Shown here: positions 20,627 through 64,000 of the stretch, piece by piece
Numbering within the stretch: the first letter of the stretch is position 1
Layout of the letters: each line of letters opens with the position of its first letter
IMG/VR virus record: IMGVR_UViG_3300030099_003764
Length of the DNA stretch: 64,000 nucleotides
Source: an uncultured virus (IMG/VR IMGVR_UViG_3300030099_003764)
Lineage: Duplodnaviria; Heunggongvirae; Uroviricota; Caudoviricetes
Strand: one strand, 5' to 3'
Notes under the pieces: generated by a model
What the model saw: only the letters and a program-made list of their open reading frames with translations
Databases searched by the model: none
Told to the model about the DNA's origin: nothing
Made by a program: the position numbers and the translations under genes

Positions 20627-21327
20627 ATTTTCACCTTGTCCTCACTGTTTAATGTGTCTAATATTCTTTTGGCGGTCTTTTCGCCTATTCCATCCATGTG
20701 ACACAATTCATGGACTTTTTGTTCTCCTATTTCCATAATGCAACCATACTCTTTGATTAGAGCCTTTGCTTTCTTATATGAAACTCCCTTAATACTTGTT
20801 AGTACATCTAATCTTAAATCATCAGTAGTAACTCTCTTGAATACTTCAGGTCTAATTACATCTCTAACAATAGGTTTCATTTTGCATATGCTACTTATTA
20901 TTAAAGCCGCTTCTTCTTCTGAAGGAACCCAAAATGCTTTTACATCAGTATCTAATGTAATTCTTCCTATTCCTCCTAAAAACTTATTATTCAACATCAT
21001 TGTTCTTGCAGGTTCTTGAATGTTAGATTTACCGTATTCTTTTATATTATAAATTGCTTCTTCTAATGAACCGTAAATAATTACAATGTTAGTTTTGTAG
21101 TGCCTATCCATGTTATCTATTTGAGTCCATATTCTTTTACTCATAACTGAACCCAAAAAGTCTGTTGATGATTTTGCTTCAAAACAAACATCATCAAAAA
21201 CATAGTCGCCAATTTCAAGCCATTTCTTTTCTGTCTTTATTCCTAAACTCTTACACTTTAATTCAACCAAGCGCACTAACTTAGAACCTTGTTTTTCTCT
21301 ACTATCTATTATTAACATATTACTCAC
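20623..21327 (-). CDS. ERCC4/XPF-family nuclease with HhH motifs
   Basis: 'IIDSRE', 'LEIGDY', 'FEAKSSTDF'; HhH 'IKGVSYKKA' and 'MDGIGEKTA'. Confidence 0.85.
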   Translation of the reverse strand: MSNMLIIDSREKQGSKLVRLVELKCKSLGIKTEKKWLEIGDYVFDDVCFEAKSSTDFLGSVMSKRIWTQIDNMDRHYKTNIVIIYGSLEEAIYNIKEYGKSNIQEPARTMMLNNKFLGGIGRITLDTDVKAFWVPSEEEAALIISSICKMKPIVRDVIRPEVFKRVTTDDLRLDVLTSIKGVSYKKAKALIKEYGCIMEIGEQKVHELCHMDGIGEKTAKRILDTLNSEDKVKI

Positions 21328-22981: not shown

Positions 22982-23887
22982 TCACAACCATGTATCAGTT
23001 TGTGCGGCATCACAAATGCCGAAATAAGAACAATGTGAACAAGTCTTATAGAAAAACTTCGCAGGGAAATGCGAGTTTTCATAAGACCAAATCAACTTAG
23101 CAATGTTATTCATTACAGAAGTCATTGTTCTTTTCTTTACTTCTTGAGAAAAGACATAATTAGATACAGGATAGTACCAACCCCAATGAGTTACTTTCTT
23201 ATTAGGGTCTAATCCGTTTTTAATCAACACTTCATCTTCAGCATTTTCAATAAGTAATTGATAGAAAGCCATTTCCTTTCTCATACTTGTTGCTTTGTAG
23301 TCTTTCCAAGCACCTGTCTTATACTCAAAAGGAATATACCCGCCATTTTCCTCAAAGATTCTATCAATAATACCTTGAATGTGTATTTTGTAATCTCTCT
23401 TTAGAGGAAACTTAGGGTTTGTATCTTTATCAATAACAATTTCTGCATCAAACTTGCCTTCATTACAAACAGGTAGATATTCATGCAGTTTGTTTTCCGC
23501 CCTTGCTTCAATAAATCTCTCCGCTTCAAAGGCTGACATTGTGATGTATATGTCTAAGTAATCATCAATAGGATGAAGGCTTTGACAATACTCATAGATT
23601 TCTGTACTGTTCATTGATTCTGCTTTCTTAATATCAAACTCATTAAAAAAGTTTTCTCTTGCATTGTGACAAACCGTTCCCTTCAACATTGCGTCTGTTT
23701 GGTCTTGAGGAAGTCTTTGTATGTAAGAGAAATCGTACTTTTTAGGACACCAATCAAAAGAACCTAATGAAGATTTAGTTATTTTCAGTATAGGTTTGCT
23801 TGGGTCGTCAAAGTTTTCGGGCTTAAAGTCATAAGTAAAATCTTGCATTGAAGAAATTACCGCATTATATTTTTCATCTATATTCAT
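22982..23887 (-). CDS. Cas4/RecB-like PD-(D/E)XK exonuclease
   Basis: 'WCPKKY', 'GIIDRI', 'EYKTG', 'FYQLL', C-terminal 'CSHCSYFGIC' (split Cys cluster ligands). Confidence 0.85.
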   Translation of the reverse strand: MNIDEKYNAVISSMQDFTYDFKPENFDDPSKPILKITKSSLGSFDWCPKKYDFSYIQRLPQDQTDAMLKGTVCHNARENFFNEFDIKKAESMNSTEIYEYCQSLHPIDDYLDIYITMSAFEAERFIEARAENKLHEYLPVCNEGKFDAEIVIDKDTNPKFPLKRDYKIHIQGIIDRIFEENGGYIPFEYKTGAWKDYKATSMRKEMAFYQLLIENAEDEVLIKNGLDPNKKVTHWGWYYPVSNYVFSQEVKKRTMTSVMNNIAKLIWSYENSHFPAKFFYKTCSHCSYFGICDAAQTDTWL

Positions 23888-23888
23888 A

Positions 23889-24770
23889 TTACCACCAATC
23901 GTCTAAGTTTTTCTGTATTTTACCGGTTCTTATGCTTGACAAATCCCACTCCATAGCCTTGTAAATAGGCTTTGCCTTCTCTACTACCTGTTCGGCGTAG
24001 TGCTTCCAATCGGGTACATAACCCTTGAAATCTGCGTAGGTTGTGCCGGAAACATATTCTGCATTTCTCTTCTCTCCTGTTAATGGATGAGTATATGTTT
24101 TATGCAAATGCTTTGCTTTTAGAAATAAATAGGAATCATCAAACTCCACATTAGTATGTTCCCAAGCATAAAGCATACCTGCAATACCTTCACCAAGAGA
24201 AGGTTTTTTGTTTTCTAAGGTAACAAATAATTTACCTTCTGTGCCACATTTTTTGCACCATTTGATAGGCTCTTTGATGTGATGTTTTAATCCGCAATCG
24301 GGACACTTAACAGTCAAACGATTGCTTCTTAGTCTTGCTCTTTTGATAATGGATTCAATATCTATTTTACCTTCTAATACAGAAACATAAGTATCGTGCA
24401 GATACCTATTGATTTCTTCTTTAGATTTCTGCTGAACCCACATCTTCAAAGCAGTAGTTTGAACATCTTTTGCTAATTTAGTTTCACTAACTCTTTTAGC
24501 AGTAAAACCTGTCATAGTGAACTTTTGTTCATCCAGCCACTCTCCATCATCCCATGATACTAAACCAGCATTGCGATTTTTTGTAGTACCAACACCTAAT
24601 GCTGAGAAGTATTTTTCAAACTCCAAAACGACAGGGTGTTCGTCTAAACCTAATACATTAGGAAAATGTTCTCTAACACTTGCTTCTATTTCTTTGATAG
24701 CAGTTTGAGCCTTTTCAACTGAATCAATCTGAACATAGATTGAGTCTGTATGCCCATAAACTACTTTCAT
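23889..24770 (-). CDS. polB: Family B DNA polymerase, C-terminal subunit (motif C + thumb) of a split enzyme
   Basis: Begins 'YGHTDSIYV' (motif C variant), 'LEFEK', 'KNRNAG'; contains a CPDC...CKKC insertion. Confidence 0.85.
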   Translation of the reverse strand: MKVVYGHTDSIYVQIDSVEKAQTAIKEIEASVREHFPNVLGLDEHPVVLEFEKYFSALGVGTTKNRNAGLVSWDDGEWLDEQKFTMTGFTAKRVSETKLAKDVQTTALKMWVQQKSKEEINRYLHDTYVSVLEGKIDIESIIKRARLRSNRLTVKCPDCGLKHHIKEPIKWCKKCGTEGKLFVTLENKKPSLGEGIAGMLYAWEHTNVEFDDSYLFLKAKHLHKTYTHPLTGEKRNAEYVSGTTYADFKGYVPDWKHYAEQVVEKAKPIYKAMEWDLSSIRTGKIQKNLDDWW

Positions 24771-25763: not shown

Positions 25764-27416
25764 TCATATTTTCATCTCCTTTGCCTTAAATGCGGCTAAT
25801 CTGATTGCTTCTCTAGCACTTGCAGTAATAGAAGCCGCTAATTTAGGATTAGCCCAACTAAAGCCGGTATATCCGATAATGCCATAAAAAGATGCAGATA
25901 GCCTTTTTACTGCCATTTGGTTATTATACCATTTTCTAAACTCATCTTCAGTTTGAGCATTCTTCATATTGCTCTTGTAAGAGTTTCTTAACTCCTTCAA
26001 TTCTAATACTGCTCTTGGCAAAACGCCTAATTTATCAGTCTTGAAATAAACCATATCTTCTGCCACAGGCTCGCTGAAATCTCTTGGTGTTAAGATATTT
26101 ACTGCAAACTCTGTTGGTTTGTCTGAAATGGTTTCCCAACTAATATTCCTTGCAATCATCATTGAAGGATATAGGCCAGCAAAATCAAAAGCGGCTACAT
26201 TAAGATGTAGCCCGTTTGTATCTTCACTTAACGGGTCATAAATCATAGCCCCTTGATATGATTGCTTCTTCTCATTTTTGTTTCCTGTTGGTGCTTTCCA
26301 ATAGGCATTTCTCATAAAGTAAATACTACCCATATGCGAAGCATAGAAACAAGCATCAAATGGTGCTTTCAATAATCGTTGTAGAGCAATAATCGCTTCA
26401 CTACAATAATTAGTTTCATCTATTTCAACAATCAATTCTACATCTTTTAGAGCATACTGTGAATAAGTTTCTGAATCTTCTAACCAACCTCTACGGTAAA
26501 ACTCGTTAGGGTCAGGAAACTTTTCTGAAACTAACTTCTTCTTATTAAGTAAAGATTCAGATACATAATCCAAAGATAGAGAAGGCAATGTTCCTCTTTG
26601 CGAGTCATTCCATTGTCTTTCAAAAGCCATGTCTAATGAGAGGGTTATGCGACCCCCTATGGGCTGTTCTATTGGCGAGAATCCTTTTTCACCTCTATTG
26701 TATTTGTAGCCATCCTTAGTCTTTTTTAGACCATCTACACGGTTAATCGGTGACATTCTATTAGGGTTAATTCCTAACGCACAACATCTTTCAAGAAGTT
26801 TAGGTATATCTGCAAAGTTACCGAACCAAGCAATTAGCATGTCAGGGTCTTTGTCTATCATAGTATTAATGAAATGTTCAAGCATTTCTTTTTCAGAATT
26901 AAAAGCATACATTTGTTTATATTGTAAAGTGGAGAATCCGTTAGATTTTCCATTAGGAAACCAAATCCATTGGTAATACTTCTCATCATAATTATCATAC
27001 ATTACAATAGTAGTAATTTCATTATGGTGTTCTCCGCCTTGTTGCCATTCCATATCCCAATACCATTTACGCATTTTATACTCCGGCATTTCGTGTATTT
27101 CATCTACTGCGTATCTGAATGTATATGGTACATCAGCCTCATAAGTCTTAGAAAACTTAGATTTTGCTTTTCTAATATCAAAGGAGTTTTCAACATAAAC
27201 CTTCTTCAATCGTTCACCATCTATATTTACCCAATCACCCGTTTCATACTCAAACTCACGCTCAATGTATTTGTTAGGTGCATAGGTACGATGTTCAGTT
27301 TCACTGTTATTAACAAAAAAGTACGGTCTGAAAGGAATTAATTCAAACTTCTTTTCACCGTTCTCTCTCCATGATTTGTATATATGTTTGCCATCTAAAC
27401 ATCTACTGATTATCAA
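25764..27416 (-). CDS. polB: Family B DNA polymerase, N-terminal subunit (3'-5' exonuclease, motifs A and B) of a split enzyme
   Basis: Exo 'WDME', 'YALKD'; motif A 'DFAGLYPS'; motif B 'KRLSASFYG'; ends just before motif C. Likely TTG start at 27416 (ORF track extends to 27470). Confidence 0.9.
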   Translation of the reverse strand: MIISRCLDGKHIYKSWRENGEKKFELIPFRPYFFVNNSETEHRTYAPNKYIEREFEYETGDWVNIDGERLKKVYVENSFDIRKAKSKFSKTYEADVPYTFRYAVDEIHEMPEYKMRKWYWDMEWQQGGEHHNEITTIVMYDNYDEKYYQWIWFPNGKSNGFSTLQYKQMYAFNSEKEMLEHFINTMIDKDPDMLIAWFGNFADIPKLLERCCALGINPNRMSPINRVDGLKKTKDGYKYNRGEKGFSPIEQPIGGRITLSLDMAFERQWNDSQRGTLPSLSLDYVSESLLNKKKLVSEKFPDPNEFYRRGWLEDSETYSQYALKDVELIVEIDETNYCSEAIIALQRLLKAPFDACFYASHMGSIYFMRNAYWKAPTGNKNEKKQSYQGAMIYDPLSEDTNGLHLNVAAFDFAGLYPSMMIARNISWETISDKPTEFAVNILTPRDFSEPVAEDMVYFKTDKLGVLPRAVLELKELRNSYKSNMKNAQTEDEFRKWYNNQMAVKRLSASFYGIIGYTGFSWANPKLAASITASAREAIRLAAFKAKEMKI

Positions 27417-43109: not shown

Positions 43110-44015
43110 CTATGCTCGCTCACCGGTATCACATCTTTCATTCTTATTGTCATTTATATTCACTCCTTTTATTTCGGACATCTTACTATATCCTAACATT
43201 TCTATTATTTTCTTACTTGTCTTTCCTATTGCAGACAAGGAAACATCAGTGTTTTCTGATATTTCTGATTTAGTAATTCCTGTATATCTACACATATTTA
43301 CTGCTACCCAACATATACTTGCGTAGTATGCTCTTGGCTTATTGTAGCAGTGATATTCAATAATAGGTTCCATCTTCAACAGTAAATCAACTGCGTTAGA
43401 ATAGAACATAATATCATCAGTTATTTTACTACAAGTTTGCTTGAGCAAAAAGGTAGGGTCTGCACCATACAAGATATTCTTATTCTTGAAATGATGAACC
43501 ATTCTTTGAACCAACCTATTTACTATCTTAGTAGAACAAGAATACTCTGAACATAGTTTCTTCATTTCTACCGGAGTCCTGTTCTCTTTGAGAACATAAC
43601 ATACAGTAGCAGTACATCTTGTTTCTAACTTAATGTTACCAAACAAACCCTTTCTTTGTGCTTGCATATAACATTCTTCTACTCTATCCTTGAGAGGATG
43701 GTTTATCTGAATAGAAGATAATATCATATTGCATGTCTGTAATGCTTGAGTAATGTGTCTTGGTATTGCTAAGTTATTTCCTCTAACATTAAACTTAGAA
43801 GAACCTTTACCACTAATTATAGAACCCAATTTACCCTTATCGGCACTATGGATAACATTACCTTCATCAACCATTCTCACGGTTTCTTCAAACAATTCTG
43901 TAACTACTACTAAACCACATTCACTGCATTCAGTTTCGCCCATTCTTTCATTGTAATTAAATATCAGACTTCCACATTCCACACATTTCATTTTCATTCC
44001 TTCCTTCATTTTCAT
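43110..44015 (-). CDS. tfb: Transcription initiation factor B (TFIIB/TFB) homolog
   Basis: N-terminal Zn ribbon 'CVECGS...GETECSECGLVV', followed by two cyclin-like repeats ending in an HTH; true start probably near 43991. Confidence 0.8.
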   Translation of the reverse strand: MKMKEGMKMKCVECGSLIFNYNERMGETECSECGLVVVTELFEETVRMVDEGNVIHSADKGKLGSIISGKGSSKFNVRGNNLAIPRHITQALQTCNMILSSIQINHPLKDRVEECYMQAQRKGLFGNIKLETRCTATVCYVLKENRTPVEMKKLCSEYSCSTKIVNRLVQRMVHHFKNKNILYGADPTFLLKQTCSKITDDIMFYSNAVDLLLKMEPIIEYHCYNKPRAYYASICWVAVNMCRYTGITKSEISENTDVSLSAIGKTSKKIIEMLGYSKMSEIKGVNINDNKNERCDTGERA

Positions 44016-53941: not shown

Positions 53942-54418
53942 TCACTCTTCAGTATCAGAACCAAGAAGTGACTCTATTGAGCCATCCCAAGCACCGGTCT
54001 TGAATTGCTTTGAAAGAGCATTTCGCACTTTCTTAGATTGTGCCTTAGCATAATCTTCAGCCGATTCAAAAGTTCCGCCGCCGGACTTAGCATGTTTTAG
54101 CGTAACTGCGCTAATAATGCCATCGTAGTTGTAATACGCCATTGACGCTTCTTCTACGACATTACAAATCCTGTCAATTGCTACTCTAATAGCGGCAGGT
54201 ACAGCACTTCTTTGTCCTCTTCGCCCAAGTGGAGAACCGTCACGGCCCTTTAGTAATGCCTTTAGAGCATTAGCCGCAGCATCTCTTTCATTTGGGTTAT
54301 CTTGTCCGACTTGAAGATGCAATTCAACAACTTGTTTCAAAGCACCATCAAGGCTTTCATCTGCATTTAGGTAATCTGTGACCTCGATAACGAGGCTATC
54401 CCACTTTACTTCATCCAT
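53942..54418 (-). CDS. Paralog family member 1 ('WDG' family, unknown function)
   Basis: Shares 'KW...ER...SP...KHxKSGGG...WDG' with 58183 and 59838; start reassigned to MDEVKW. Confidence 0.7.
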   Translation of the reverse strand: MDEVKWDSLVIEVTDYLNADESLDGALKQVVELHLQVGQDNPNERDAAANALKALLKGRDGSPLGRRGQRSAVPAAIRVAIDRICNVVEEASMAYYNYDGIISAVTLKHAKSGGGTFESAEDYAKAQSKKVRNALSKQFKTGAWDGSIESLLGSDTEE

Positions 54419-55057: not shown

Positions 55058-55088
55058 GGTTATTCCCGCTTTGTTAAACGGAATAACC
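55058..55088. repeat. Cassette boundary half-site (right hairpin only)
   Basis: GGTTATTCC-cgCTTTGttaaac-GGAATAACC. Confidence 0.7.
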
Positions 55089-55091
55089 TTG

Positions 55092-55132
55092 AAAAAAAGG
55101 AGGCAAATGGGGTTTTACCCCCATTTACCCCC
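55092..55132 (-). terminator. Hairpin + T-tract terminator
   Basis: AAATGGGG...CCCCATTT with A-run 55092-55098. Confidence 0.6.
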
Positions 55133-55159
55133 TATTAGCCGCCGTATTTACACCACCTC

Positions 55160-55552
55160 CTATTCGTCATTCATTTTCTTTCCTTTAGTAAAATGCTCTT
55201 TGTACTCTTCAGAATAGTTTCCGTGATAAACTGCTTGCTCGTATTCATCTTGTGATATGAGCATGTTTTTGATATATTCAGCAATCTCTTCAAATCTCTC
55301 CGATTCGACACACCATATATTCGCTATTGTTTCACAGTATTCTAAATAATTGAATATGCTGGTAAAGTCCTTGATTGACTTATTCTCCATACCGCCCTCT
55401 CTACTTCTACCCATGTGATTAGTTGGTACTATGTGACAGCCGAACTTATCAGTAGGAAAGTCCTCTTCATAGCATTCACAATTCAGTCCCGCTTCTTTAC
55501 TGCATTTCTCACAATCTGTCTTATCTCCAAATGTTCTATTCATGTCTTTCAC
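55160..55552 (-). CDS. Hypothetical acidic protein (cassette 1)
   Basis: 130-aa ORF with its own TATA-like element (~55642) and terminator. Confidence 0.6.
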   Translation of the reverse strand: MKDMNRTFGDKTDCEKCSKEAGLNCECYEEDFPTDKFGCHIVPTNHMGRSREGGMENKSIKDFTSIFNYLEYCETIANIWCVESERFEEIAEYIKNMLISQDEYEQAVYHGNYSEEYKEHFTKGKKMNDE

Positions 55553-55650
55553 CTTTCTCTAAAGTGCCCCGTTCAGAAGAATCCGATTATTTTCCGTAAT
55601 TTTCCGATAATTTTCCGAACTGTTATTATCAAAAATATGGGTATATGCAA

Positions 55651-55707
55651 GGTAGTCAAAGTAACTACCATATGGTTGGTAGTGTTCTTTGAAGGAACGG
55701 TACGACC
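55651..55707. repeat. Double-hairpin cassette boundary element 1
   Basis: GGTAGT-CAAAGTA-ACTACC ATAT GGT...CTTTG...ACC. Confidence 0.85.
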
Positions 55708-55736
55708 ATAAAAAAATGGAACAGGTGATGGCCGAT

Positions 55737-56132
55737 TTACTCGGCCACCACCTTTACTCCATCAGGTACCATTTTCAATATAACATGAATTGCATGTAGA
55801 AATCTTTGCTTCATGTCAAATGTTGATGCTGCTTTCCATGCCTCAATATTATGTAGTAGCAATTGCTTGAAGTCACCAACATTATCAAAATCAATCACAT
55901 TCATAATTCCTTCATTTTCCACTCTTGATTGAAAGTCGTTAAACTCGGTTTCCCTCTGTTCTTCTTCTTCTTCTCTACTCGGAATGCCCTTCTTTTCACG
56001 AATACATGCACCACATGTAGCAATAATCTCATAATCAGCATATTCGTCCTCATAGTCACCTAGTCCATAATGGCCGATTGTTACTTGTTCACCGCATCCG
56101 TCTTCACTGCATGTTATATAATCCCATGTCAT
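55737..56132 (-). CDS. Acidic zinc-finger protein (cassette 2)
   Basis: 'CSEDGC...CGAC'; promoter ACCTTATAT abutting boundary element 2. Confidence 0.65.
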   Translation of the reverse strand: MTWDYITCSEDGCGEQVTIGHYGLGDYEDEYADYEIIATCGACIREKKGIPSREEEEEQRETEFNDFQSRVENEGIMNVIDFDNVGDFKQLLLHNIEAWKAASTFDMKQRFLHAIHVILKMVPDGVKVVAE

Positions 56133-56159
56133 ACTAATACGGAATAATTCTACATATAA

Positions 56160-56218
56160 GGTAACATCAAAGTTAATGTTACCATATGGTTGTAATCACT
56201 TTGAATAGCATTACAACC
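56160..56218. repeat. Double-hairpin cassette boundary element 2
   Basis: GGTAACAT-CAAAGTTA-ATGTTACC ATAT GGTTGTAAT-caCTTTGaatagc-ATTACAACC. Confidence 0.9.
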
Positions 56219-56234
56219 TTGAAAAAAAATAATG

Positions 56235-56679
56235 AAAAAACGCCGCCTACTTTGAATCTCGGACTCACAACGCTCAATCATCGTTTGTGGCTGAAGTCAT
56301 CCTCTTGACCGGTACCAGAGGATAAGGTTTCAGAACCGCACTAAACCTATGAGCGAATAACTGCCTTTTTCGTTTCGGCTTTGTTTCTTCATATGAGAAT
56401 GTGAAAGGTGGTGAATCGGATTGTGTACCGATAACATTGATAGGACTAACTCCCACTGATTTAACAACGCTCGCTTTATTCAATTGAGCCAATGTACCAC
56501 GATTATCCATGTTATCAGTAAATAACACCCCTTTTGAGGTTGAAGGACTTTCTTAGAGGCAACTCCTAATCCATTTGGACATCAGAATGTGCATAAGCCG
56601 AAACTACTCGGAACCGTGTGCGTTATCCCCGTTGTAAAAGGATATTCCGCCATCACCGTGTCGAGGTGCCCCCCGACAT
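56235..56679 (-). ncRNA. Candidate ~440-nt structured non-coding RNA (cassette 3)
   Basis: Minus-strand TATA (ACCCTATATA 56701-56710) and T-runs at 56222-56240; no credible ORF; 10-bp long-range helix 56372-56381/56595-56604 plus several local hairpins. Confidence 0.55.
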
Positions 56680-56707
56680 TAATTTATGACGGTAATAGGA
56701 TATATAG

Positions 56708-56748
56708 GGTCTTCAAAGTTAAGACCATATGGTTGTACTTTGAAAACC
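56708..56748. repeat. Double-hairpin cassette boundary element 3
   Basis: GGTCTT-CAAAGTT-AAGACC ATAT GGTT-gtaCTTTGaa-AACC, flanked by divergent TATA elements. Confidence 0.9.
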
Positions 56749-56778
56749 CTATTATAACCCCCTACATCGTATATTAAC

Positions 56779-57255
56779 ATGGTAAAAGTAACAACTACGA
56801 CTAACCCACATGTGCATGATGATAATACAGTGAGCAAAACAACAACTTTCGAGTGTGAAACGAAAGAAGAGTTTGTGAAAGTCTGGAATGATAGAAAATA
56901 CATCCCAAAGTCAAGGAAAATCAAGTGGTCGGCAAATATTGACAAACTTGAAGTGTATTCGGAAGAATGGATTAATTTTGAAGATGTCTTATTTCCTCCT
57001 GAAGTTAAAGAATACATTCCTACTGAAGTAGATAAGAGGGCGGCTAAGATTCTTCAAATCGAAACATGGATGGAAAACAACCCTCAATTTCACGAAACCG
57101 AGAATTGGCCTATTATTGAATACTGCATTAGCAGAATGAATGTCGTTAGTTGTAATGATAGTAGTGAATTGTTTGATAATTTGATGAGTCTATTTATTCT
57201 CAATTCAAGACACTATGAACCTGCATGTTTCTACAGGGGGGATGAAGAAGAATGA
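56779..57255 (+). CDS. Hypothetical protein (cassette 4, probably leaderless)
   Basis: 158-aa ORF starting ~25 nt after TATTATAA (56750-56757). Confidence 0.65.
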   Translation: MVKVTTTTNPHVHDDNTVSKTTTFECETKEEFVKVWNDRKYIPKSRKIKWSANIDKLEVYSEEWINFEDVLFPPEVKEYIPTEVDKRAAKILQIETWMENNPQFHETENWPIIEYCISRMNVVSCNDSSELFDNLMSLFILNSRHYEPACFYRGDEEE

Positions 57256-57401
57256 CCTGTGATGATTGTGGCAGTTCAAATACTGAAATCGAAGAAGGAC
57301 ATTGGGGCCAATGGTGGATTTGTTGTAATGAATGCGATTGGGTTATGTTGTATAACACTTATGTTAAGGATAATGAACCGGATAACTATGGAGATGATTG
57401 A
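57252..57401 (+). CDS. Small zinc-ribbon protein (49 aa, not in ORF track)
   Basis: MTCDDCGS...ICCNECDW; ATGA overlap with upstream stop. Confidence 0.55.
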   Translation: MTCDDCGSSNTEIEEGHWGQWWICCNECDWVMLYNTYVKDNEPDNYGDD

Positions 57402-57587
57402 ATGATAAAGGACGATTATGTATTGAAGAAGAAGTATGATGAAAGAGTTGCTGAAGGTAACGCATGGTGGCACAATTATTGTGTTACAATGAATAAGTTC
57501 ATGAAAGCCAACGGGCACAAGGTTGCCATTGGTTGTGCTTTGAATCCAAATGAGCCTTTGACATCTGAAAGAAGATATGTTGAGTAA
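57402..57587 (+). CDS. Hypothetical protein
   Basis: 61-aa ORF followed by a terminator. Confidence 0.55.
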   Translation: MIKDDYVLKKKYDERVAEGNAWWHNYCVTMNKFMKANGHKVAIGCALNPNEPLTSERRYVE

Positions 57588-57589
57588 AG

Positions 57590-57623
57590 GGGGTAGGGGC
57601 GAAAGCCCCACCCCTATTTTTTT
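57590..57623 (+). terminator. Hairpin (GAAA loop) + T-tract terminator
   Basis: GGGGTAGGGGC-GAAA-GCCCCACCCC then T7. Confidence 0.75.
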
Positions 57624-57631
57624 AGGAACGG

Positions 57632-57690
57632 GGTATTTCAAAGTACATACCATATGGTTTGAGAGATACTTTGAATAATTCTCTCAAACC
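57632..57690. repeat. Double-hairpin cassette boundary element 4 (between convergent units)
   Basis: GGTAT-ttCAAAGtac-ATACC ATAT GGTTTGAGAGA-taCTTTGaataat-TCTCTCAAACC. Confidence 0.9.
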
Positions 57691-57702
57691 CCAAAAAAAT
57701 AG

Positions 57703-57744
57703 AAAAAACCGGATAGGGGCCAATGTAAGTCACCCCTATCCGGT
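57703..57744 (-). terminator. Hairpin + T-tract terminator
   Basis: ACCGGATAGGGG...CCCCTATCCGGT with A-run on +. Confidence 0.7.
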
Positions 57745-57756
57745 AGTAAATCCAAC

Positions 57757-58017
57757 TTACTTGTCGGATTCATCAATTAATGCACGAATCTTCTTCGCTT
57801 CAGTCTTGAATGCCTTCATTGCTGGCATTACTTGACCTAATACTCTGAATCTGCAAGTACCGTCCAAATCTAGTTGGTCAACTCTTAGACTGTATTTGTC
57901 GGTCATTTTCGCTAAGAATCTAAGGATTCTTGGTGCTTCTTCTGCTGCTTGCCCACAAAACTCGGCATAAATCCTACCGTGCCCTGTTTCTATGTCTACA
58001 TCCATCTTTAACGACAT
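57757..58017 (-). CDS. Hypothetical protein (cassette 5)
   Basis: Start reassigned to MSLKMDVD after a GAGGT RBS; the longer ORF-track version runs through boundary element 5. Confidence 0.6.
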   Translation of the reverse strand: MSLKMDVDIETGHGRIYAEFCGQAAEEAPRILRFLAKMTDKYSLRVDQLDLDGTCRFRVLGQVMPAMKAFKTEAKKIRALIDESDK

Positions 58018-58061
58018 GTTACTACCTCTTGGTACTATTATGGGATGATAGGCCTTATATC

Positions 58062-58118
58062 GGGCCTTCAAAGTTAAGCCCATATGGTTGTAACTTTGTT
58101 CATGCGAAGCACTTGACC
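58062..58118. repeat. Double-hairpin cassette boundary element 5 (between divergent units)
   Basis: GGGCCTT-CAAAGTT-AAGCCC ATAT GGT-tgtaaCTTTG...ACC. Confidence 0.85.
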
Positions 58119-58182
58119 CTATATAGGCAAATGGACTCAATATTAATACCTCAAGGGGATTGAGGATAGTAACGGAGAATAG

Positions 58183-58707
58183 GTGATTACTATGATTATG
58201 GACGAAGATAAGTGGACTGAAAGGTCAACAGAGATAAGAGCATGGCTTGAGCATAATGACGCTGGCGCAATGAACGCACTAATTGAGCAGACATTGAACG
58301 CTGGTGATGCAGCAAGTAGTGATGATGAAAGAAACCGTTTTTGGGAAGCAGTGAGAGCAATTTGCAAGACTCTCCCAAACTCGCCAATAAAAAAGGGTCG
58401 TGGCTCAACATTAGAACCTGCGATTCAAGCGTGTGTGGATGGTGTAGTGAATCGCATTCAAAATGCCTTTGCAACCATTTCTGACGCTGGACTAATACTC
58501 GAAGTAATGCTACCACACGGTAAAACCGGTGGCGCATATGCTGACATTGACGCATTCTCAAAGGATATGGCAATGAAGGCACAAAGAGTCCTAAAGGCAG
58601 CATTGAAAGATGGCCGTTGGGACGGAACAATGAACGAAGATAACTTGACCGGTTTAACTCCACCTGTCAAGGAATCTGACAGTGAATCTAAGGAGGAAAC
58701 TGTCTGA
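58183..58707 (+). CDS. Paralog family member 2 (cassette 6)
   Basis: Close paralog of 59838-60326; GGTGAT RBS suggests the start is the ATG at 58192 or 58198. Confidence 0.75.
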   Translation: MITMIMDEDKWTERSTEIRAWLEHNDAGAMNALIEQTLNAGDAASSDDERNRFWEAVRAICKTLPNSPIKKGRGSTLEPAIQACVDGVVNRIQNAFATISDAGLILEVMLPHGKTGGAYADIDAFSKDMAMKAQRVLKAALKDGRWDGTMNEDNLTGLTPPVKESDSESKEETV

Positions 58708-58813
58708 TGCTATCCACAATCCCCTTGTAGGCCCATTACATTCATTTCGGCGGGCAACTCATACCAATTAAAATTAGAATACCTGAATTGTGTCAATGTG
58801 TAGGCCGGTAAAT

Positions 58814-58876
58814 CGCATGAGAATTAAGCAGAAGAATGAAACCTCGCTTAATTCTCATGCGGTAGCCCTTTTTTTT
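58814..58876 (+). terminator. Long hairpin + T-tract terminator
   Basis: CGCATGAGAATTAAGC/GCTTAATTCTCATGCG 16-bp stem followed by a T-run. Confidence 0.7.
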
Positions 58877-58882
58877 ATTCAA

Positions 58883-58949
58883 GGTTGAGCCAAATGCTAC
58901 GCATTATCCAAAGTGTGTCACAACCATATGGTTTGCTTTGTAACAAACC
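58883..58949. repeat. Double-hairpin cassette boundary element 6 (between convergent units)
   Basis: GGTTG...CAAAGT...CAACC ATAT GGTTTG-CTTTGtaa-CAAACC. Confidence 0.85.
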
Positions 58950-58960
58950 CGATAGCCATT

Positions 58961-59008
58961 AAAAAAAAGGAAAAGGGGGAAAACGCCGTTTTTTCAGCGT
59001 TTTCCCCC
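58961..59008 (-). terminator. Hairpin + T-tract terminator
   Basis: GGGGGAAAACGC...GCGTTTTCCCCC with A-run on +. Confidence 0.7.
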
Positions 59009-59017
59009 GATTTCTAT

Positions 59018-59614
59018 TCATGCACGGTCAAACTCGTACATATCTACTAATTTTGGTGGCTGGATAGGGTGATATGCACCGCTATACTTGATACCTTCAA
59101 TTGTGCCATCCCAAACACCGTTCTTCAGAGAATCGACTAATCTCTTCTCTAATTTGTCACAGTATCTCTTTAGCCATCTATCAAACAATACCGCCTCATC
59201 CCAATCCTGAGTATCAAACTCACTTATGCGCCTACGGTTTATGATAAATGGATTAAATGCCAAATTGTGTAAATTGATATTCGCCCATGTTTCCATTGAT
59301 TCTCTGAATTGTTGAATCATATCATCAATAGTGGCTTTGACATCTGCTGGAATAATAGTATGCCTTCTAGTTACCAAATAATAGAAAGGTGTTGCTTTCA
59401 TTAGGTTTTGTAGAGCAAGCCAATTACATTGGACTTGGTAATCTACTCTTCTCGTCCAATCAGCCATGTCATTCAATGAATCTTGGATAATTGTCATTAG
59501 GGTCAAAACGAGTTCTGCCCTCCAATCCTGTATTTCATCAAATAGCCCTGTTTTGTGAGCATGGGCTAATGCGTCTATCTTTTTCATCAGTGCTTGTGGT
59601 GTTATGTTCTTCAT
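59018..59614 (-). CDS. Divergent paralog family member 3 (cassette 7)
   Basis: C-terminal 'LKNGVWDGT' and 'IPADVKATIDD' segments resemble the family. Confidence 0.6.
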   Translation of the reverse strand: MKNITPQALMKKIDALAHAHKTGLFDEIQDWRAELVLTLMTIIQDSLNDMADWTRRVDYQVQCNWLALQNLMKATPFYYLVTRRHTIIPADVKATIDDMIQQFRESMETWANINLHNLAFNPFIINRRRISEFDTQDWDEAVLFDRWLKRYCDKLEKRLVDSLKNGVWDGTIEGIKYSGAYHPIQPPKLVDMYEFDRA

Positions 59615-59653
59615 AATACTCCCTTAGTAATATGCGAAAAATCGGCATATTAG

Positions 59654-59724
59654 GGTAGTTCAAAGTACACTACCATATGGTAATAAAATATTTATGAAAT
59701 AAATACGCTTTGTGTTTTACTACC
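59654..59724. repeat. Double-hairpin cassette boundary element 7
   Basis: GGTAGT-tCAAAGtac-ACTACC ATAT GGTAATAAAA...CTTTG...TTTTACTACC. Confidence 0.85.
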
Positions 59725-59837
59725 ATAAAAAAATAAGACTACAAAGCGGCACAAACTGAAATCAGATATTGTTATTGGTATTGTTATTTCAGTTTGTACC
59801 GCTTTGGGTGAATATAAGGCTACGGGGGAAATCAGCA

Positions 59838-60326
59838 TCATTCTTCTTCTTCAGCCTCCATGCCGAAGTTTTGTGTGGCTAAACCGGTACGAGTACCGTC
59901 CCACACATTATCTTTCAAACGCCTCTTGAGCGAGTTCACAATAGTAGAAGCCATGTATGCCGAATATTCATCAGCATCACTGAATAGGCCTCCGCCGGAT
60001 TTACCGTGCTTAGTTAGTAACATCGAAATGTTACCAGAAGCAAAAAAATCGGATGCGGCTTGTGAAACTTCATCCGATATTGAATCTAGTACGGCTTGAA
60101 TCTCAGGTGGGAGTTGGGAACCCCTACCTTTCTTAATTGGTGAATTAGGCAAGGTCTTACAAATAGCCCTTACTGCCTCCCAAAATCTTTCTCTTTCTTC
60201 ATCACTTGAAGCAACTTTACCTGCTTCAAGTGTTTGAAGAATCAAATCATTCATAGCACCTGCATCATTTTCCTTTAACCATGATACAATCATAGTTACC
60301 TTTTCATTCCATTTTGTCATATCCAT
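59838..60326 (-). CDS. Paralog family member 4 (cassette 8)
   Basis: Shares the identical 24-aa block RFWEAVRAICKTLPNSPIKKGRGS with 58183-58707. Confidence 0.75.
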   Translation of the reverse strand: MDMTKWNEKVTMIVSWLKENDAGAMNDLILQTLEAGKVASSDEERERFWEAVRAICKTLPNSPIKKGRGSQLPPEIQAVLDSISDEVSQAASDFFASGNISMLLTKHGKSGGGLFSDADEYSAYMASTIVNSLKRRLKDNVWDGTRTGLATQNFGMEAEEEE

Positions 60327-60394
60327 AAGTAATCAACTCCTTGAATAATACTTCATTCCCCCGAAGCAATACTATGATGTCAATTTGCCTATAA

Positions 60395-60635
60395 GGTAGA
60401 CCATTCGTACCTCATTCTCCAAAGTTCGCTTACCATATGGTTGTGTAGTAATTCATCTATATAGATGGGCTTGTATTAAAATACAATGTAAGATTACAAT
60501 ATTAAAAGATAACACTTTAATTGAGTTGAAGGGATTATTTAGATGATTTTTGCTTGTGTTCGATTAAATCTATATATTTTAAATTGATTCTATATAGACC
60601 CATATAGCAGATTATACAACCATATGGCTTTGTCC
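60395..60635. repeat. Boundary elements 8 and 9 enclosing an AT-rich ORF-less unit
   Basis: GGTA...CAAAGT...TACC ATAT GGTTGTGTA (60395-60447) and TATACAACC ATAT GG-CTTTGT-CC (60613-60635); the two cores are inverted relative to each other. Confidence 0.8.
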
Positions 60636-61139: not shown

Positions 61140-61409
61140 ATGACATGGAAAGATGAGATTAAAAAAAGAAAACTACATATTAGGGGTGGTTTAGCAAAAG
61201 AAGCCAAAATGTTTCTAAAAGATGTTGAATCACATTTAGACAGTATTTTGCCTTCTATTAAACAAGAGTTTGGTAATTATCCTGAATATGATAGAAAGCA
61301 AATAGAAAAGGTCATATTATCCACATTAAAAGAAGATATTGATAATATTAAAAGAAGCCTAAAGTCCGAACAAGTTATTTTGGCTGGCCTTGAAAGGTTT
61401 GGATTATGA
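61140..61409 (+). CDS. M[ST]WxDxxK-tagged small protein
   Basis: Starts MTWKDEIKK. Confidence 0.65.
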   Translation: MTWKDEIKKRKLHIRGGLAKEAKMFLKDVESHLDSILPSIKQEFGNYPEYDRKQIEKVILSTLKEDIDNIKRSLKSEQVILAGLERFGL

Positions 61410-61421
61410 AGGGTGATTATT

Positions 61422-61682
61422 ATGACATGGAAAGATGAGATTAGAAAAGCCAAAAGATATACCGCACAACAGTCTGATTTAGATACTGATGAGGCAGAAG
61501 AAATATTAGATGATTTACAATTATTAATTGAACGAATGGAAAAAAATTATGATGAATTAGTTTCTGTAACATCTTATGTTAAAACAGAAGAAGAACAGTC
61601 TCAGAAAAAAATTACCGAGTTTATTGATAGATTAAAAAACTTTGTTGACTTTTTAGAAAATAACGCCATGAGCGAAATGTGA
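61422..61682 (+). CDS. M[ST]WxDxxK-tagged small protein
   Basis: Starts MTWKDEIRK after a GGTGAT RBS; 29-bp start region identical to that of the previous gene. Confidence 0.65.
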   Translation: MTWKDEIRKAKRYTAQQSDLDTDEAEEILDDLQLLIERMEKNYDELVSVTSYVKTEEEQSQKKITEFIDRLKNFVDFLENNAMSEM

Positions 61683-61797
61683 AGTTGATTAATATGACAA
61701 GATGCACATTACTTGACACTTGGTTTGATGCTAAGTCTAAGGAATTGGATAAGGCAGAAAAAGAGAAGAATAGGGATTTGATTACAGGTGAGAAAAG

Positions 61798-62010
61798 ATG
61801 ACTTGGCAAGATATAATGAAAAAGAAAAAAGGCACACCTTTTCCTAAAAAAATATTTAAGAATAAAAAAGCCTATCATTATGTCAGTCAGAAAAAAGGTA
61901 AAGGTACTTATAGAATAGATAATAGTTATTTACGATACCCCGATAGAGATAAGTCCAAAGATGTAATTAAAGTCTGGAAAGAAGATGCTCTTAGAATGAC
62001 AAGGTGGTAA
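61798..62010 (+). CDS. M[ST]WxDxxK-tagged small basic protein
   Basis: Starts MTWQDIMKK. Confidence 0.65.
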   Translation: MTWQDIMKKKKGTPFPKKIFKNKKAYHYVSQKKGKGTYRIDNSYLRYPDRDKSKDVIKVWKEDALRMTRW

Positions 62011-62011
62011 T

Positions 62012-62338
62012 ATGTCTTGGGAAGATATAATGAAAAAAGACTATGTAAATGTAGATGAAGAACTAGAAGATTTAGAAAATCAAGCAGAAGAGTATCAGCG
62101 ATTAGCACTCGCTCTCGGTCAAATAGCCAAAATCGCAATACAAGGTCATACCTATGCTAACATGCCTGAAGACAAAAGAGAAGTATTTGATAAGGCGATA
62201 GCGGGAATGGAAGAGATGGAAAAACAAGCGGAAAAAGCCAAAAAAGCATATAATGACGCAATAAAAAATATGGCTAAATTATTAGGTACTGAAAATACTG
62301 CTAAAGATGTAAAGGACTTTATTCAGAATAATATGTGA
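62012..62338 (+). CDS. M[ST]WxDxxK-tagged coiled-coil protein
   Basis: Starts MSWEDIMKK. Confidence 0.65.
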   Translation: MSWEDIMKKDYVNVDEELEDLENQAEEYQRLALALGQIAKIAIQGHTYANMPEDKREVFDKAIAGMEEMEKQAEKAKKAYNDAIKNMAKLLGTENTAKDVKDFIQNNM

Positions 62339-62347
62339 GATGATGCT

Positions 62348-62716
62348 ATGACATGGTTTGATGTAGTTAAGATTCTAACTCCAAGACAGTTTCTTGAGTC
62401 TTTAGAGATAGATGGTATCATTAAAGGTAAAGCCGGTAAATACGGTACTAACATGGAATTAGTTAGTGATGATATTGTTATCAAGATTAGACAAGACAAG
62501 TACGGGATGAACAGTGTTAATGTCAATGAAAAGAGGTTTGCATCCCATGACCTAAACAAGATATTAGTAGCGGTAAAGAAGGAATTGAAAGAAGATTCTT
62601 ATACCGATGCTTTACTAAGAGAAGCAGGGGTAGTGGATTCCGGCAAGGCCGGTATCATTAATGTGAGATATTCACCAAAAAAGGAGGATGAAGAAGATGG
62701 CGAAAAAGAAGACTAA
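62348..62716 (+). CDS. M[ST]WxDxxK-tagged protein
   Basis: Starts MTWFDVVK. Confidence 0.65.
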   Translation: MTWFDVVKILTPRQFLESLEIDGIIKGKAGKYGTNMELVSDDIVIKIRQDKYGMNSVNVNEKRFASHDLNKILVAVKKELKEDSYTDALLREAGVVDSGKAGIINVRYSPKKEDEEDGEKED

Positions 62717-63806
62717 GAAGAGTCCTTCGGGGGATGGCTATGGTAATACCATAGAATCAGAACCTTTGACATTTAGAAAAGCATACTTAGAGTGGGAAAA
62801 TAAGTGTAAGGGTATCAGTGCTAAAGAGATACAATCAGAAGGTAGAAAGGGAGTAAGAAGTGTTCCTCCTAATTTATTTGAACAGATTCAAGAGCATGTG
62901 ACGGCGGCATTTAGACGACCCGAATCAAGCAATGATGGTACTAAAGGTGCCTATGTTTTGATAGATGATATAATCAAAGCACTCAAAGATGATAAGTTGT
63001 TTTTGGAAAATGAGAGAGATAATCTTGAAAAGTTTCAGAAGGATATGGGAGTATTCCTCAAGGCTAACAGTAAATTAAATCCAAGTAATATTGAGTTTAA
63101 TAGGCCGGAAACATACGATGTAGTGAACGGCAAAGTAGTCAATGAAAGTGAAGACACAATCACCATTTACGGGCATTATGTTGATAAGTATTTTATAGAT
63201 AAATACCCTAAGAAAAAGTATAAGGTAATGCCAAGTTGGTCGAGTAGAAATAAAAATGAATCTAATCCACCATACAAGCAAGCATTGTTTGGTGGTGGCG
63301 ATTTACTCGGAGAAGGTGAAGGTCTTTTAGATGTAATAGAATTAGCACTAAAAGAGTTAGATGAGAAGGTTATCGAACTTTATACTATTGGAATTAAAAG
63401 AGCATCTGCTTTAGCAAGACTACCTTCGGTTCAATCATGGGTTAGACGCAATATCAAAAAGAAACAATTCTATCCTTCTAATAGTGGTAAAATCAATTTG
63501 CGCCAAATAGGTGAAGCACTACTAACTCAAGAGTTTCCTATCAAGAACGATATAGAACAAAGAATGGTAACTATAGCGGCTACAAATAAAGACATTGAGT
63601 TTGCACAAAAAATAGAGAGATTCAAAGTCGGGCGAATAAGCAATCAAGTTATGGCTACTCTGATTAGAGAAGTTATTTCAAGAGGCAAAGAAGAAAACAT
63701 TAGAGTTAAAAATGGCTACTATCTACAATTAAGGGGATTATCTGACCCTCCTTCTGAAACATGGAAAGAAATCAAAAAGAGTTGGATGCAACATTTATGG
63801 GCGTGA
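62688..63806 (+). CDS. Hypothetical protein
   Basis: 372-aa ORF; C-terminus 'TWKEIKKSWMQHLWA' carries the tag-like motif. Confidence 0.65.
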   Translation: MKKMAKKKTKKSPSGDGYGNTIESEPLTFRKAYLEWENKCKGISAKEIQSEGRKGVRSVPPNLFEQIQEHVTAAFRRPESSNDGTKGAYVLIDDIIKALKDDKLFLENERDNLEKFQKDMGVFLKANSKLNPSNIEFNRPETYDVVNGKVVNESEDTITIYGHYVDKYFIDKYPKKKYKVMPSWSSRNKNESNPPYKQALFGGGDLLGEGEGLLDVIELALKELDEKVIELYTIGIKRASALARLPSVQSWVRRNIKKKQFYPSNSGKINLRQIGEALLTQEFPIKNDIEQRMVTIAATNKDIEFAQKIERFKVGRISNQVMATLIREVISRGKEENIRVKNGYYLQLRGLSDPPSETWKEIKKSWMQHLWA

Positions 63807-63810
63807 TTAA

Positions 63811-64000
63811 ATGAGTTGGGAAGATATAATGAAAGATAATAAAATGTTAAAGTCACTTATAGATAAGTATGAGAAAAAGATGGATTTAGAGAAACCAATA
63901 CAGTATCTTAATGAAAACATATTTGAAGCCTATCAACAGTTTCAAGGGGATTTACCAGACGAAATCCTAAATGAAAAGGAATTGATTGGCTTATTTAGAG
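63811..64000 (+). CDS. M[ST]WxDxxK-tagged protein (3' truncated by window)
   Basis: Starts MSWEDIMKD; open to the end of the window. Confidence 0.6.
   Translation, partial: MSWEDIMKDNKMLKSLIDKYEKKMDLEKPIQYLNENIFEAYQQFQGDLPDEILNEKELIGLFR

Follow-up and report, generated by a model that had tools for sequence, protein, structure and literature searches.

The window analysed here is a 64,000-nucleotide stretch (64 kb) of the uncultured virus record IMG/VR IMGVR_UViG_3300030099_003764. It is magrovirus-like by its Pfam matches, which include a split family-B DNA polymerase, RFC-like AAA+ proteins, an ATP-dependent ligase, a thermosome-type chaperonin and a ribonucleotide reductase. Positions 55058-60635 carry an array of short gene units separated by a repeated element, the joint, at whose centre lies the palindromic core CCATATGG. 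This 8-mer occurs nine times in the window, starting at 55668, 56182, 56725, 57650, 58080, 58924, 59673, 60433 and 60620; all copies lie inside 55668-60627 and there are none elsewhere. Shuffled sequences contain a mean of 0.67 copies (maximum 4), and none of 100 shuffles reaches nine. Seven of the nine cores are perfect copies of the 10-mer ACCATATGGT, and the other two deviate at one outer base. Variants with one or two mismatches are found elsewhere in the window near the chance level (45 versus 31.9 in all), so the window is free of decayed core copies. The initial annotation, made from the sequence without database searches, had given all nine positions exactly. Among full-text literature matches to the 8-mer, those listed are unrelated, being mostly primers and cloning sites.

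Read in the sense of its gene, a unit consists of a core, an arm (GGT-stem, ACTTTG loop, stem-ACC), a TATA-like box, the gene or genes, a terminator hairpin with a T-run, an arm with a CAAAGT loop, and the next core. The TATA-like box usually lies 7-9 nt past ACTTTG, and the core is 17-32 nt upstream of the TATA-like boxes. Unit lengths range over 187-925 bp. Eight units hold one to three open reading frames (ORFs) or one RNA, in the orientations -,-,-,+,-,+,-,-; both contents and mixed orientation are as first described, and the element does form the border of self-contained units, each with its own TATA-like box and terminator. Promoter activity is predicted from the TATA-like boxes that follow the arms. 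The layout CTTTG...ACC...TATA is present at six places in the array, compared with five scattered matches in the rest of the window, which argues for a promoter class of its own. Hairpins followed by a T-run are enriched (14 versus 4.1 +/- 1.9 in shuffles), and sigma-70-like sites are at chance (22 versus 22.8 +/- 5.1). Public DNA and RNA runs were compared as assembled contigs, and array parts without RNA cover are not readable as silent. The two RNA-run contigs that lie close to predicted promoters stop some 20 nt past the TATA-like box, on its downstream side (58148 and 55605), which is a weak hint only, since contigs cannot define transcript ends.

Across all arrays, 133 junctions could be classed on both sides, and these comprise 85 tandem, 32 divergent and 16 convergent junctions; 30 of 289 cores fall within an ORF of at least 60 aa. 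In the window, joints 4 and 6 lie between convergent terminators with a promoter on neither side, so the joint is not simply a promoter element, a point that the initial annotation had already made from the presence of the element at all three kinds of junction.

From left to right, the array begins with a border (55058-55088) that is a terminator-side hairpin arm with a 9-bp stem and CTTTG in its loop, and no adjoining palindrome. Unit 1 (55089-55650, -) contains an ORF at 55160-55543 (127 aa, Cys-rich N-terminus) between a predicted hairpin and T-run terminator at 55098-55133 and a TATA-like promoter near 55625-55640. Joint 1 (55651-55707) has a left arm at 55651-55669 (6-bp stem), its core at 55668-55675 and a weak right arm extending to 55707; the 3' half of the left arm can also pair with a right-arm GGTAGT across the core (55664-55683), giving an alternative fold. 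Unit 2 (55708-56159, -) holds an ORF at 55737-56132 (131 aa) and a terminator hairpin at 55723-55753. Joint 2 (56160-56218) has a left arm at 56160-56183 (8-bp stem), core at 56182-56189 and right arm at 56188-56218 (9-bp stem). The non-coding RNA unit 3 (56219-56707, -) follows, with a match to the Rfam manA RNA at 56405-56678, and is separated from unit 4 by the divergent joint 3 (56708-56759; left arm 56708-56726 with a 6-bp stem, core 56725-56732), whose right arm enters the TATA-like box of unit 4.

Unit 4 (56760-57631, +) has three ORFs (56779-57255, 57252-57401 and 57402-57587) and a hairpin with T-run at 57590-57623. Joint 4 (57632-57690) is convergent and promoter-less, with a terminator on each side; its left arm is at 57632-57651 (5-bp stem), its core at 57650-57657 and its right arm at 57656-57690 (11-bp stem). 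Unit 5 (57691-58061, -), with an ORF at 57757-58017 (86 aa), abuts the divergent joint 5 (58062-58117), in which the left arm has one bulge, the core at 58080-58087 has C for A at an outer base, and the right arm leads to a TATA-like box at 58118-58128. Unit 6 (58118-58882, +) carries an ORF at 58192-58707 of the 'LPNSPI..GRG' family and a long 3' region with a hairpin and T-run near 58813-58878. The convergent joint 6 (58883-58949) has a left arm with a large loop (5-bp stem), core at 58924-58931 and right arm at 58930-58949 (6-bp stem). Unit 7 (58950-59653, -) has a 198-aa ORF at 59018-59614 with a terminator at 58975-59008, and joint 7 (59654-59724) has a left arm at 59654-59674 (6-bp stem), core at 59673-59680 and a long imperfect right arm to 59724. 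Unit 8 (59725-60414, -) contains an LPNSPI-family paralogue (59838-60326) and a non-coding hairpin region at about 59740-59810. At joint 8 (60415-60440) a CAAAG box precedes the core (60433-60440) and the arms are weak (stems of at most 4 bp). Cores 8 and 9 enclose a gene-less, AT-rich unit of 179 bp (60441-60619), in place of which the relative L029 has about 28 bp. Joint 9 (60620-60632) forms the right border; it is armless, with the core at 60620-60627 and CTTTG directly after it.

Most joints bear GGT...ACC hairpins with CAAAGT or ACTTTG loops, and in a scan of the whole window all eight such hairpins with CAAAG or CTTTG in the loop and a stem of at least 6 bp fall in 55058-59674. Every stem listed in the initial annotation was recovered: GGTAGT/ACTACC, GGTAACAT/ATGTTACC, GGTCTT/AAGACC, GGTAT/ATACC, GGTTGTAAT/ATTACAACC, GGTTTGAGAGA/TCTCTCAAACC and GGTTATTCC/GGAATAACC, the last of which belongs to the core-less half-site at 55058-55088. 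Perfect stems of at least 5 bp anchored at the core are present in six of nine left arms and three of nine right arms; copies 8 and 9 are practically armless, and the double hairpin is not uniform along the array.

Stem sequences vary and pairing persists, as had been claimed, and the pairing is specific to the individual site. We compared 756 arms from 378 unique sites, pairing each arm either with its own upstream part or with the upstream part of another arm. This partner swap (300 permutations), which addresses covariation independently of any structure-fitted alignment, keeps position-specific composition and breaks site-specific pairing. Stems of at least 5 bp form in 226 arms (null mean 52.7, null maximum 70), stems of at least 6 bp in 132 (17.1 and 28) and stems of at least 7 bp in 65 (4.8 and 13). 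The 132 arms with stems of at least 6 bp have 27 different stem halves, and CAAAG is in the loop of 114. Compensatory changes are seen between orthologous arms of the window and L029; for instance, GGTAACAT/ATGTTACC corresponds to GGTATGT/ACATACC, and GGTAGT/ACTACC to GGTTGC/GCAACC.

One explanation of the hairpins is that they act in RNA, as 3'-end stabilisers or as processing sites comparable to those at which RNase III cuts between the early genes of T7. In favour of this, stems are longest (9-11 bp) directly after T-runs, on the terminator side, and two RNA runs contain the manA-like RNA unit in abundance. The promoter-side arms, however, lie upstream of the TATA-like boxes, and pairing is symmetric on both strands. 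In stems with a single mismatch (n=59), G-T is not in excess over A-C (11 versus 14), and there is thus no sign of a constraint at the RNA level on one strand. We regard an RNA-level function as very unlikely.

The distribution of the element was examined with a 16-base pattern consisting of CAAAGT, a gap of 5-10 nt and CCATATGGTT. The pattern is found in at least 160 stretches of IMG/VR contigs, many of which are 70-100 kb long and carry multiple copies; 159 of these loci contain 566 cores. The logo from 384 unique sites is TACWA-CCATATGG-TWGTA, with A at -1 in 90% and T at +1 in 88%. The palindrome-hairpin feature is real, conserved across the virus family and not a product of chance. A genome-wide comparison used the related records G002-G005. 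There is one core cluster per genome in the four records that are 92-100% complete, with 6/6, 8/8, 12/12 and 21/22 of the cores in the cluster, and the joints are confined to one region of 3.5-5.5 kb of the virus genome. The same pattern was found at 120 or more loci of cellular genomes; among 120 listed, 114 have one core, five have two and one has three, a chance-like distribution that is uninformative on Poseidoniales hosts. Word searches of the main text of two magrovirus papers (PMC5434244, PMC11706807) gave no mention of such an element; where PMC11706807 speaks of repeats, the instances viewed concern assembly and terminal repeats.

Some relatives carry dense arrays of gene-less units of 104-176 bp, with 20 cores in 4 kb in L056 (129-4003) and 13 in 2.6 kb in L037 (3485-6040); among the internal motifs that recur in these are a conserved ACTAAGCGTG-like box and TTAATGTAATTAAAT-like boxes. 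The units may be small RNA genes or empty units. Pairs of cores only 29-50 bp apart, with a single hairpin or an AT-rich stretch between them, are present in several relatives, for example L017 (904/933), L043 (1502/1534) and L010 (1907/1957), and are minimal 'empty' units.

Whole units are inverted or missing between relatives. L029/L030 is a complete 96-kb relative that is about 70-77% identical to the window, and 8.8 kb of it were compared by blastn. Unit 2 (55667-56204) and unit 6 (58150-58932) are each inverted in L029, between two cores, and unit 8 is in direct orientation; for units 5 and 7 the comparison with these 8.8 kb gives no match. The inner arms of unit 2 travel with the cargo and are about 80% alike, and the sequences are unrelated beyond the core.

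The loci, merged into 39 contig segments with the window counted as one, were also compared with each other. The ends of high-scoring segment pairs (HSPs) in the arrays concentrate at the palindrome: 58 of 263 distinct ends fall 4-20 nt past the core centre (8.5 expected), and none fall in the 20 nt before it (10.4 expected). At 80 unit ends with non-homologous neighbours, the ungapped identity of the inner arm is 0.51-0.52 (background 0.31-0.33) and that of the outer arm 0.36-0.42 (background 0.29-0.32). The segments contain 249 core-to-core units with a median length of 514 bp, which form 53 homologous pairs between contigs. In 79 neighbour comparisons, the neighbour is kept in the same orientation in 18, found elsewhere in the other contig in 10, and unmatched in 51. 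Unit content, order and orientation thus differ among relatives and homology ends at the palindrome, which is the outcome that the initial annotation had anticipated for such a comparison.

There is one usefully close pair of genomes among the 39 segments, that of the window and its closest relative L015, which is 82-92% identical and has the same nine cores. The two differ in three places, all inside units and none at ATAT. Unit 1 of L015 has a diverged homologue followed by two extra ORFs, unit 4 has a 225-bp deletion, and in unit 2 an unrelated ORF of 94 aa, together with a terminator hairpin of its own, stands in place of the cargo. Around this replacement, unit 2 keeps about 97% identity in the T-run, in the arms and cores of both sides, and in the promoter and leader; the break points are the start codon and the border of hairpin and T-run. 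Variant contigs in two public DNA runs diverge from the window at several points. Both runs have variants that part from it at 56203, in an arm loop just past the CTTTG box, and at 59830, a gene end remote from the cores; the other points of divergence are a T-run (57708) and a place near core 9. One DNA contig joins 56203 to 60616 and was considered as a deletion variant; its shorter side is only 23 letters, and it was rejected as too short. With the L015 differences inside units and the variant contigs breaking in an arm loop, a T-run and a gene end, the initially suggested crossover at ATAT is not borne out. Of the wider proposal of a cassette exchange and inversion system, the inversion, absence and reshuffling of units with breaks at the palindrome stand, and the dedicated system is unsupported.

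The apparent break points at cores would also be explained if the joint were a purely regulatory site (an operator, roadblock or insulator) with no role in recombination, the core being simply the place where conservation ends between neighbours that diverge fast. An 18-bp palindromic logo such as this one is typically that of a dimeric DNA-binding protein, and the core lies 17-32 nt upstream of the TATA-like boxes of an array-confined promoter class. A TFIIB-type zinc ribbon protein (43110-44015) is conserved in all four of four array-bearing genomes, and the recent events in L015 bypass the core. Against this, units 2 and 6 are truly inverted with respect to both flanks and have cores at both ends, 10 of the 79 neighbours occupy a different place in the other contig, and the element is present at promoter-less convergent junctions. 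We consider a role in regulation alone rather improbable.

Alternatively, the joints could be the sites of a dedicated site-specific system, in which an unrecognised enzyme of the virus or host recognises ACCATATGGT and cuts or exchanges strands within ATAT, with excision, insertion and inversion of units in the manner of an integron or invertase system; the arms would perhaps be extruded, and a staggered cut would leave self-complementary ends to be rejoined either way by the viral ligase. Such a system would fit an invariant palindrome without decayed copies, inner arms that follow the cargo with identity falling across the core, and sites that consist of two cores split by one hairpin. Sites at convergent junctions are expected if each unit ends in a half-site, and a ligase and structure-specific nucleases are encoded.

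Recombinase searches speak against this explanation. Pfam searches of the 83 ORFs of the window revealed no integrase, resolvase, transposase or HUH protein, in agreement with the initial annotation, which had recognised no recombinase in the window. Tyrosine recombinases (PF00589) have no match in these 83 ORFs or in any of four related near-complete genomes, and serine recombinases (PF00239) have none in the window or in any of five related records. The Y1 transposase family (PF01797) has no match in the window and none above the cut-off in the five records, host genomes being outside the search. A co-occurring recombinase or HUH protein was thus not found above the cut-off in the related records (four searched for tyrosine recombinases, five for serine and Y1 enzymes). 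A sub-threshold Y1_Tnp match (15 bits versus a cut-off of 23) lies in a 66-aa frame at G004:C1:75760-75942 (+), about 3.5 kb beyond the array, and is probably due to chance. PMC11706807 also states that an integrase is absent. Together with the three in-unit differences of L015 and the divergence of variant contigs at 56203, 57708 and 59830 rather than at ATAT, these results make a dedicated system unlikely, though not negligibly so. A specific form of it would be a magrovirus cassette exchange without a known recombinase family, in which an unrecognised ACCATATGGT-binding enzyme of virus or host acts with the arms extruded as hairpins and cuts within ATAT to leave self-complementary ends, units are excised, circularised, inverted or reinserted either way round, and the viral ATP-dependent ligase reseals the ends. 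We think this form somewhat more doubtful still; if true, it would give archaeal viruses an orientation-free equivalent of the integron.

The same searches bear on the idea of a single-stranded DNA mobile element of the IS200/IS605 or REP/RAYT kind, for which an HUH enzyme would read the hairpins on one strand and ATAT would be the cleavage or target tetranucleotide. The order of hairpin, 4-nt linker and hairpin, the conservation of structure over sequence, and the intergenic, repeated placement of the joints are all in its favour. However, there is no Y1 transposase above the cut-off in five records and none in the window; the joint is two-fold symmetric, whereas the ends of IS200/IS605-type elements are strand-specific with left differing from right; and the units bear promoters and terminators instead of transposon ends. 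An element of this kind is scarcely credible here.

The array lies at a strand switch, with leftward genes from 18 to 54 kb and rightward genes from 60.7 kb, and the minimum of the cumulative GC skew coincides with it. Further Pfam matches in the window, besides the TFIIB-type protein, include genes of general recombination: a PD-(D/E)XK nuclease (22982-23887), a UvrD-like helicase and an ERCC4/XPF-HhH nuclease (20623-21318), along with the ATP-dependent ligase. The family-B DNA polymerase is split over ORFs 23889-24770 and 25764-27089 (-), with three small ORFs, one of them zinc-ribbon, between the two. The stretch after the array (61140-64000, +) holds small paralogous genes without a family match, starting at 61140, 61422, 61798, 62012, 62348 and 63811, whose products begin M(T/S)W(K/E/Q/F)D(E/I/V)....

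The cargo consists largely of ORFans. None of the array ORFs in the window has a Pfam or PHROG match above the curated cut-off, and among relatives singletons account for 176 of the 316 in-array ORFs. As their signature cargo the arrays carry the LPNSPI family, which has three paralogues of about 160-175 aa in the window (53942-54418, -; 58192-58707, +; 59838-60326, -) and is found in 31 of the 39 contig segments, with 50 of its 58 members inside arrays. Its members share the motifs LPNSPI.KGRG, HGK(S/T)GG and WDG and have an acidic tail; no Pfam or PHROG family is assigned. The protein model is all-helical (pLDDT 79) and has no PDB fold at E <= 0.001. This protein was considered as a binder of the joint and set aside, as the family and fold searches gave no clue to binding. 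The other common cargo families (about 65, 246, 60 and 97 aa) have no DNA-binding motif recognisable by eye.

The RNA of unit 3 (56405-56678, -) matches the full model of the Rfam manA RNA (RF01745) with 52 bits and an E-value of 2e-11, the gathering score being 55.2; there is no Rfam match in the window at gathering level and no tRNA. The same RNA is present in five of eight related loci (32-50 bits; L015 1712-1984, L037 4062-4298, L069 4181-4415, L056 2110-2338 and L009 3723-3961), always between two cores. The depth of RNA contigs over the manA-like unit is 672 and 100 in two metatranscriptome runs, and that of the coding units 3-24. The manA RNA is described as a riboswitch candidate from marine metagenomes and T4-like cyanophages (PMC2864571); here it is a stand-alone gene of an archaeal virus with its own predicted promoter and terminator. 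Adjoining the array of L029 is a tRNA match of 162 nt to a model of 71 nt (1011-1172, -), which suggests an intron-containing tRNA gene, and tRNA genes are also found near the arrays of L009 and L069.

Our favoured interpretation, which we hold to be probable though with considerable room for doubt, is that the joint is a composite of terminator, control site and promoter belonging to a special promoter class, and that its symmetry makes it a shuffling point for ordinary recombination. The joint would be the standard connector of the magrovirus hypervariable (ORFan) region, made of palindrome, ACTTTG box, ACC-TATA box and T-run. A unit would run from half-palindrome and arm through TATA-like box, genes or RNA, and terminator hairpin with T-run to a second arm and half-palindrome. 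Each unit thus ends in an arm and half of the palindrome, and wherever two units abut, ACCATATGGT is always restored with an arm on either side.

The palindrome and ACTTTG box are probably a shared upstream control site of the array-confined promoter class, as the position of the core ahead of the TATA-like boxes suggests. The site is likely bound by a dimeric factor, for which the invariant 18-bp palindromic logo calls, and it could serve an early or otherwise co-regulated gene set. The TFIIB-ribbon protein is one candidate binder, with nothing to tie it to the site. The arms may act as extruded DNA hairpins. As the same short two-fold symmetric sequence lies at both ends of every unit, any two joints could be recombined in either orientation by the viral replication and recombination machinery. 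The outcome would be the deletion, insertion, replacement or inversion of whole units with genes unbroken. Short-homology recombination at symmetric joints would explain exchange, loss and inversion among distant relatives, and short-homology joining of symmetric unit ends would explain the full joint at convergent junctions. Other conserved boxes would have provided the break points in recent events. Shuffling would then be a by-product of the design of the joint, possibly a selected one, and a dedicated recombinase would be unneeded.

Several observations weigh against this interpretation. As the last conserved stretch, the core may attract HSP ends by itself. The element is present at promoter-less convergent junctions (joints 4 and 6; 16 of 133), where a pure promoter site would be needless. 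The 10-mer stays invariant even between viruses with unrelated cargo or cargo of only about 70% identity, which argues for specific recognition by a protein, and that protein could be a nuclease or recombinase and not a regulator. As to an operator, the palindromic logo fits a dimeric factor, and the spacing of the CAAAGT box is variable. The distance from the core to the CAAAG box ranges over 0-23 nt in the 479 of 732 arms that have a box within 30 nt, and is thus a poor fit to a rigid duplex-binding site. Stems of at least 5 bp form in both arms of 41 of the 378 sites, in one arm of 144 and in neither of 193, so the hairpins are not obligatory. Finally, our statements on the activity of promoters and terminators, on the binding of a protein and on the route of recombination are indirect inferences.

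The joint can be compared with several known systems. Integron cassettes are promoter-less, lie in one orientation and are read from a common promoter, with an IntI tyrosine recombinase and an attI site beside the array; the attC site is an imperfect palindrome of variable sequence and length that is recognised as a folded single strand. The magrovirus array is likewise a series of small units with ORFan-rich cargo, bounded by recombination-prone sites whose structure is kept over sequence. The stems of the joint vary and keep their pairing, and an invariant palindrome of 10 bp with two-fold symmetry sets it apart from attC. An IntI integrase is lacking, and the integron comparison fails because units have their own promoters and mixed orientation. 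The initial suggestion of an integron-like system is therefore contradicted by the lack of a PF00589 match, by the promoters and terminators of the units and by their orientations. REP, BIME and REPIN elements with RAYT, and the ends of IS200/IS605, are repeated intergenic palindromes with paired, inverted hairpin modules in which pairing is kept as stems vary; here, in contrast, no Y1 or RAYT gene was found above the cut-off, and the joints are in one region and tied to promoters and terminators. The sites of serine invertases and resolvases (hix, gix, res) differ in that PF00239 is lacking in five of five records and in the window. The tests run thus place the joint outside the integrons, the IS200/IS605-type elements and the invertase systems. 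The stoperators of cluster A mycobacteriophages are short conserved protein-binding sites at many intergenic positions, some of them promoter-less; they differ from the joints in being asymmetric, genome-wide and without hairpin arms.

In the surface ocean, magroviruses count among the most abundant viruses, and almost all of their accessory genes are of unknown function. A family-wide joint around every accessory unit provides a sequence handle by which the hypervariable region of any magrovirus contig can be located and its limits set, supplies a defined promoter class and a 10-bp site for regulator hunting, and offers a concrete, testable mechanism for the gain, loss and flipping of ORFan genes in archaeal viruses.

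The comparison that fits is one that the initial annotation had also drawn, with the promoter-early stem-loops (PeSLs) of T4-type phages, a kind of mobile regulatory cassette (Arbiol et al. 2010, PMC2839356; Comeau et al. 2014, PMC4122927). PeSLs are small composites of a promoter and a stem-loop or terminator that separate non-essential ORFan genes of a hyperplastic region; relatives differ by insertions, deletions and replacements whose ends lie in the motif; and recombination between motifs is thought to require only short homology. The joint is alike in each respect, the strict form of the second being contradicted by the in-unit breaks of L015, and a helper protein may take part in both. 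Recombination between neighbouring PeSLs also forms excised mini-circles. The differences are that the joint belongs to an archaeal virus with TATA-type promoters, sigma-70-like sites being at chance, where PeSLs have an early promoter of the sigma-70 type; that its stems are GGT...ACC with ACTTTG loops where those of the PeSLs are GGGG...CCCC, with no sequence relation; that an invariant 10-bp perfect palindrome lies between two hairpins, making the joint two-fold symmetric; and that it is also found at divergent and convergent junctions, with whole units inverted. The perfect symmetry is thus an added feature that allows inversion besides exchange. A PeSL-like motif is also mentioned for the haloarchaeal myovirus HGTV-1: along one side of its genome, numerous small ORFs are preceded by a TATA-like box with an inverted repeat, which its authors likened to PeSLs (PMC3950731). 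This is an archaeal tailed virus with TATA-like box and inverted repeat, as here, and the passage of the review that describes it contains no palindromic core, double hairpin or unit inversion. The magrovirus joint works like a PeSL-type cassette joint and is not a member of that class by descent, and with it the PeSL idea would extend from T4-type phages to archaeal viruses.

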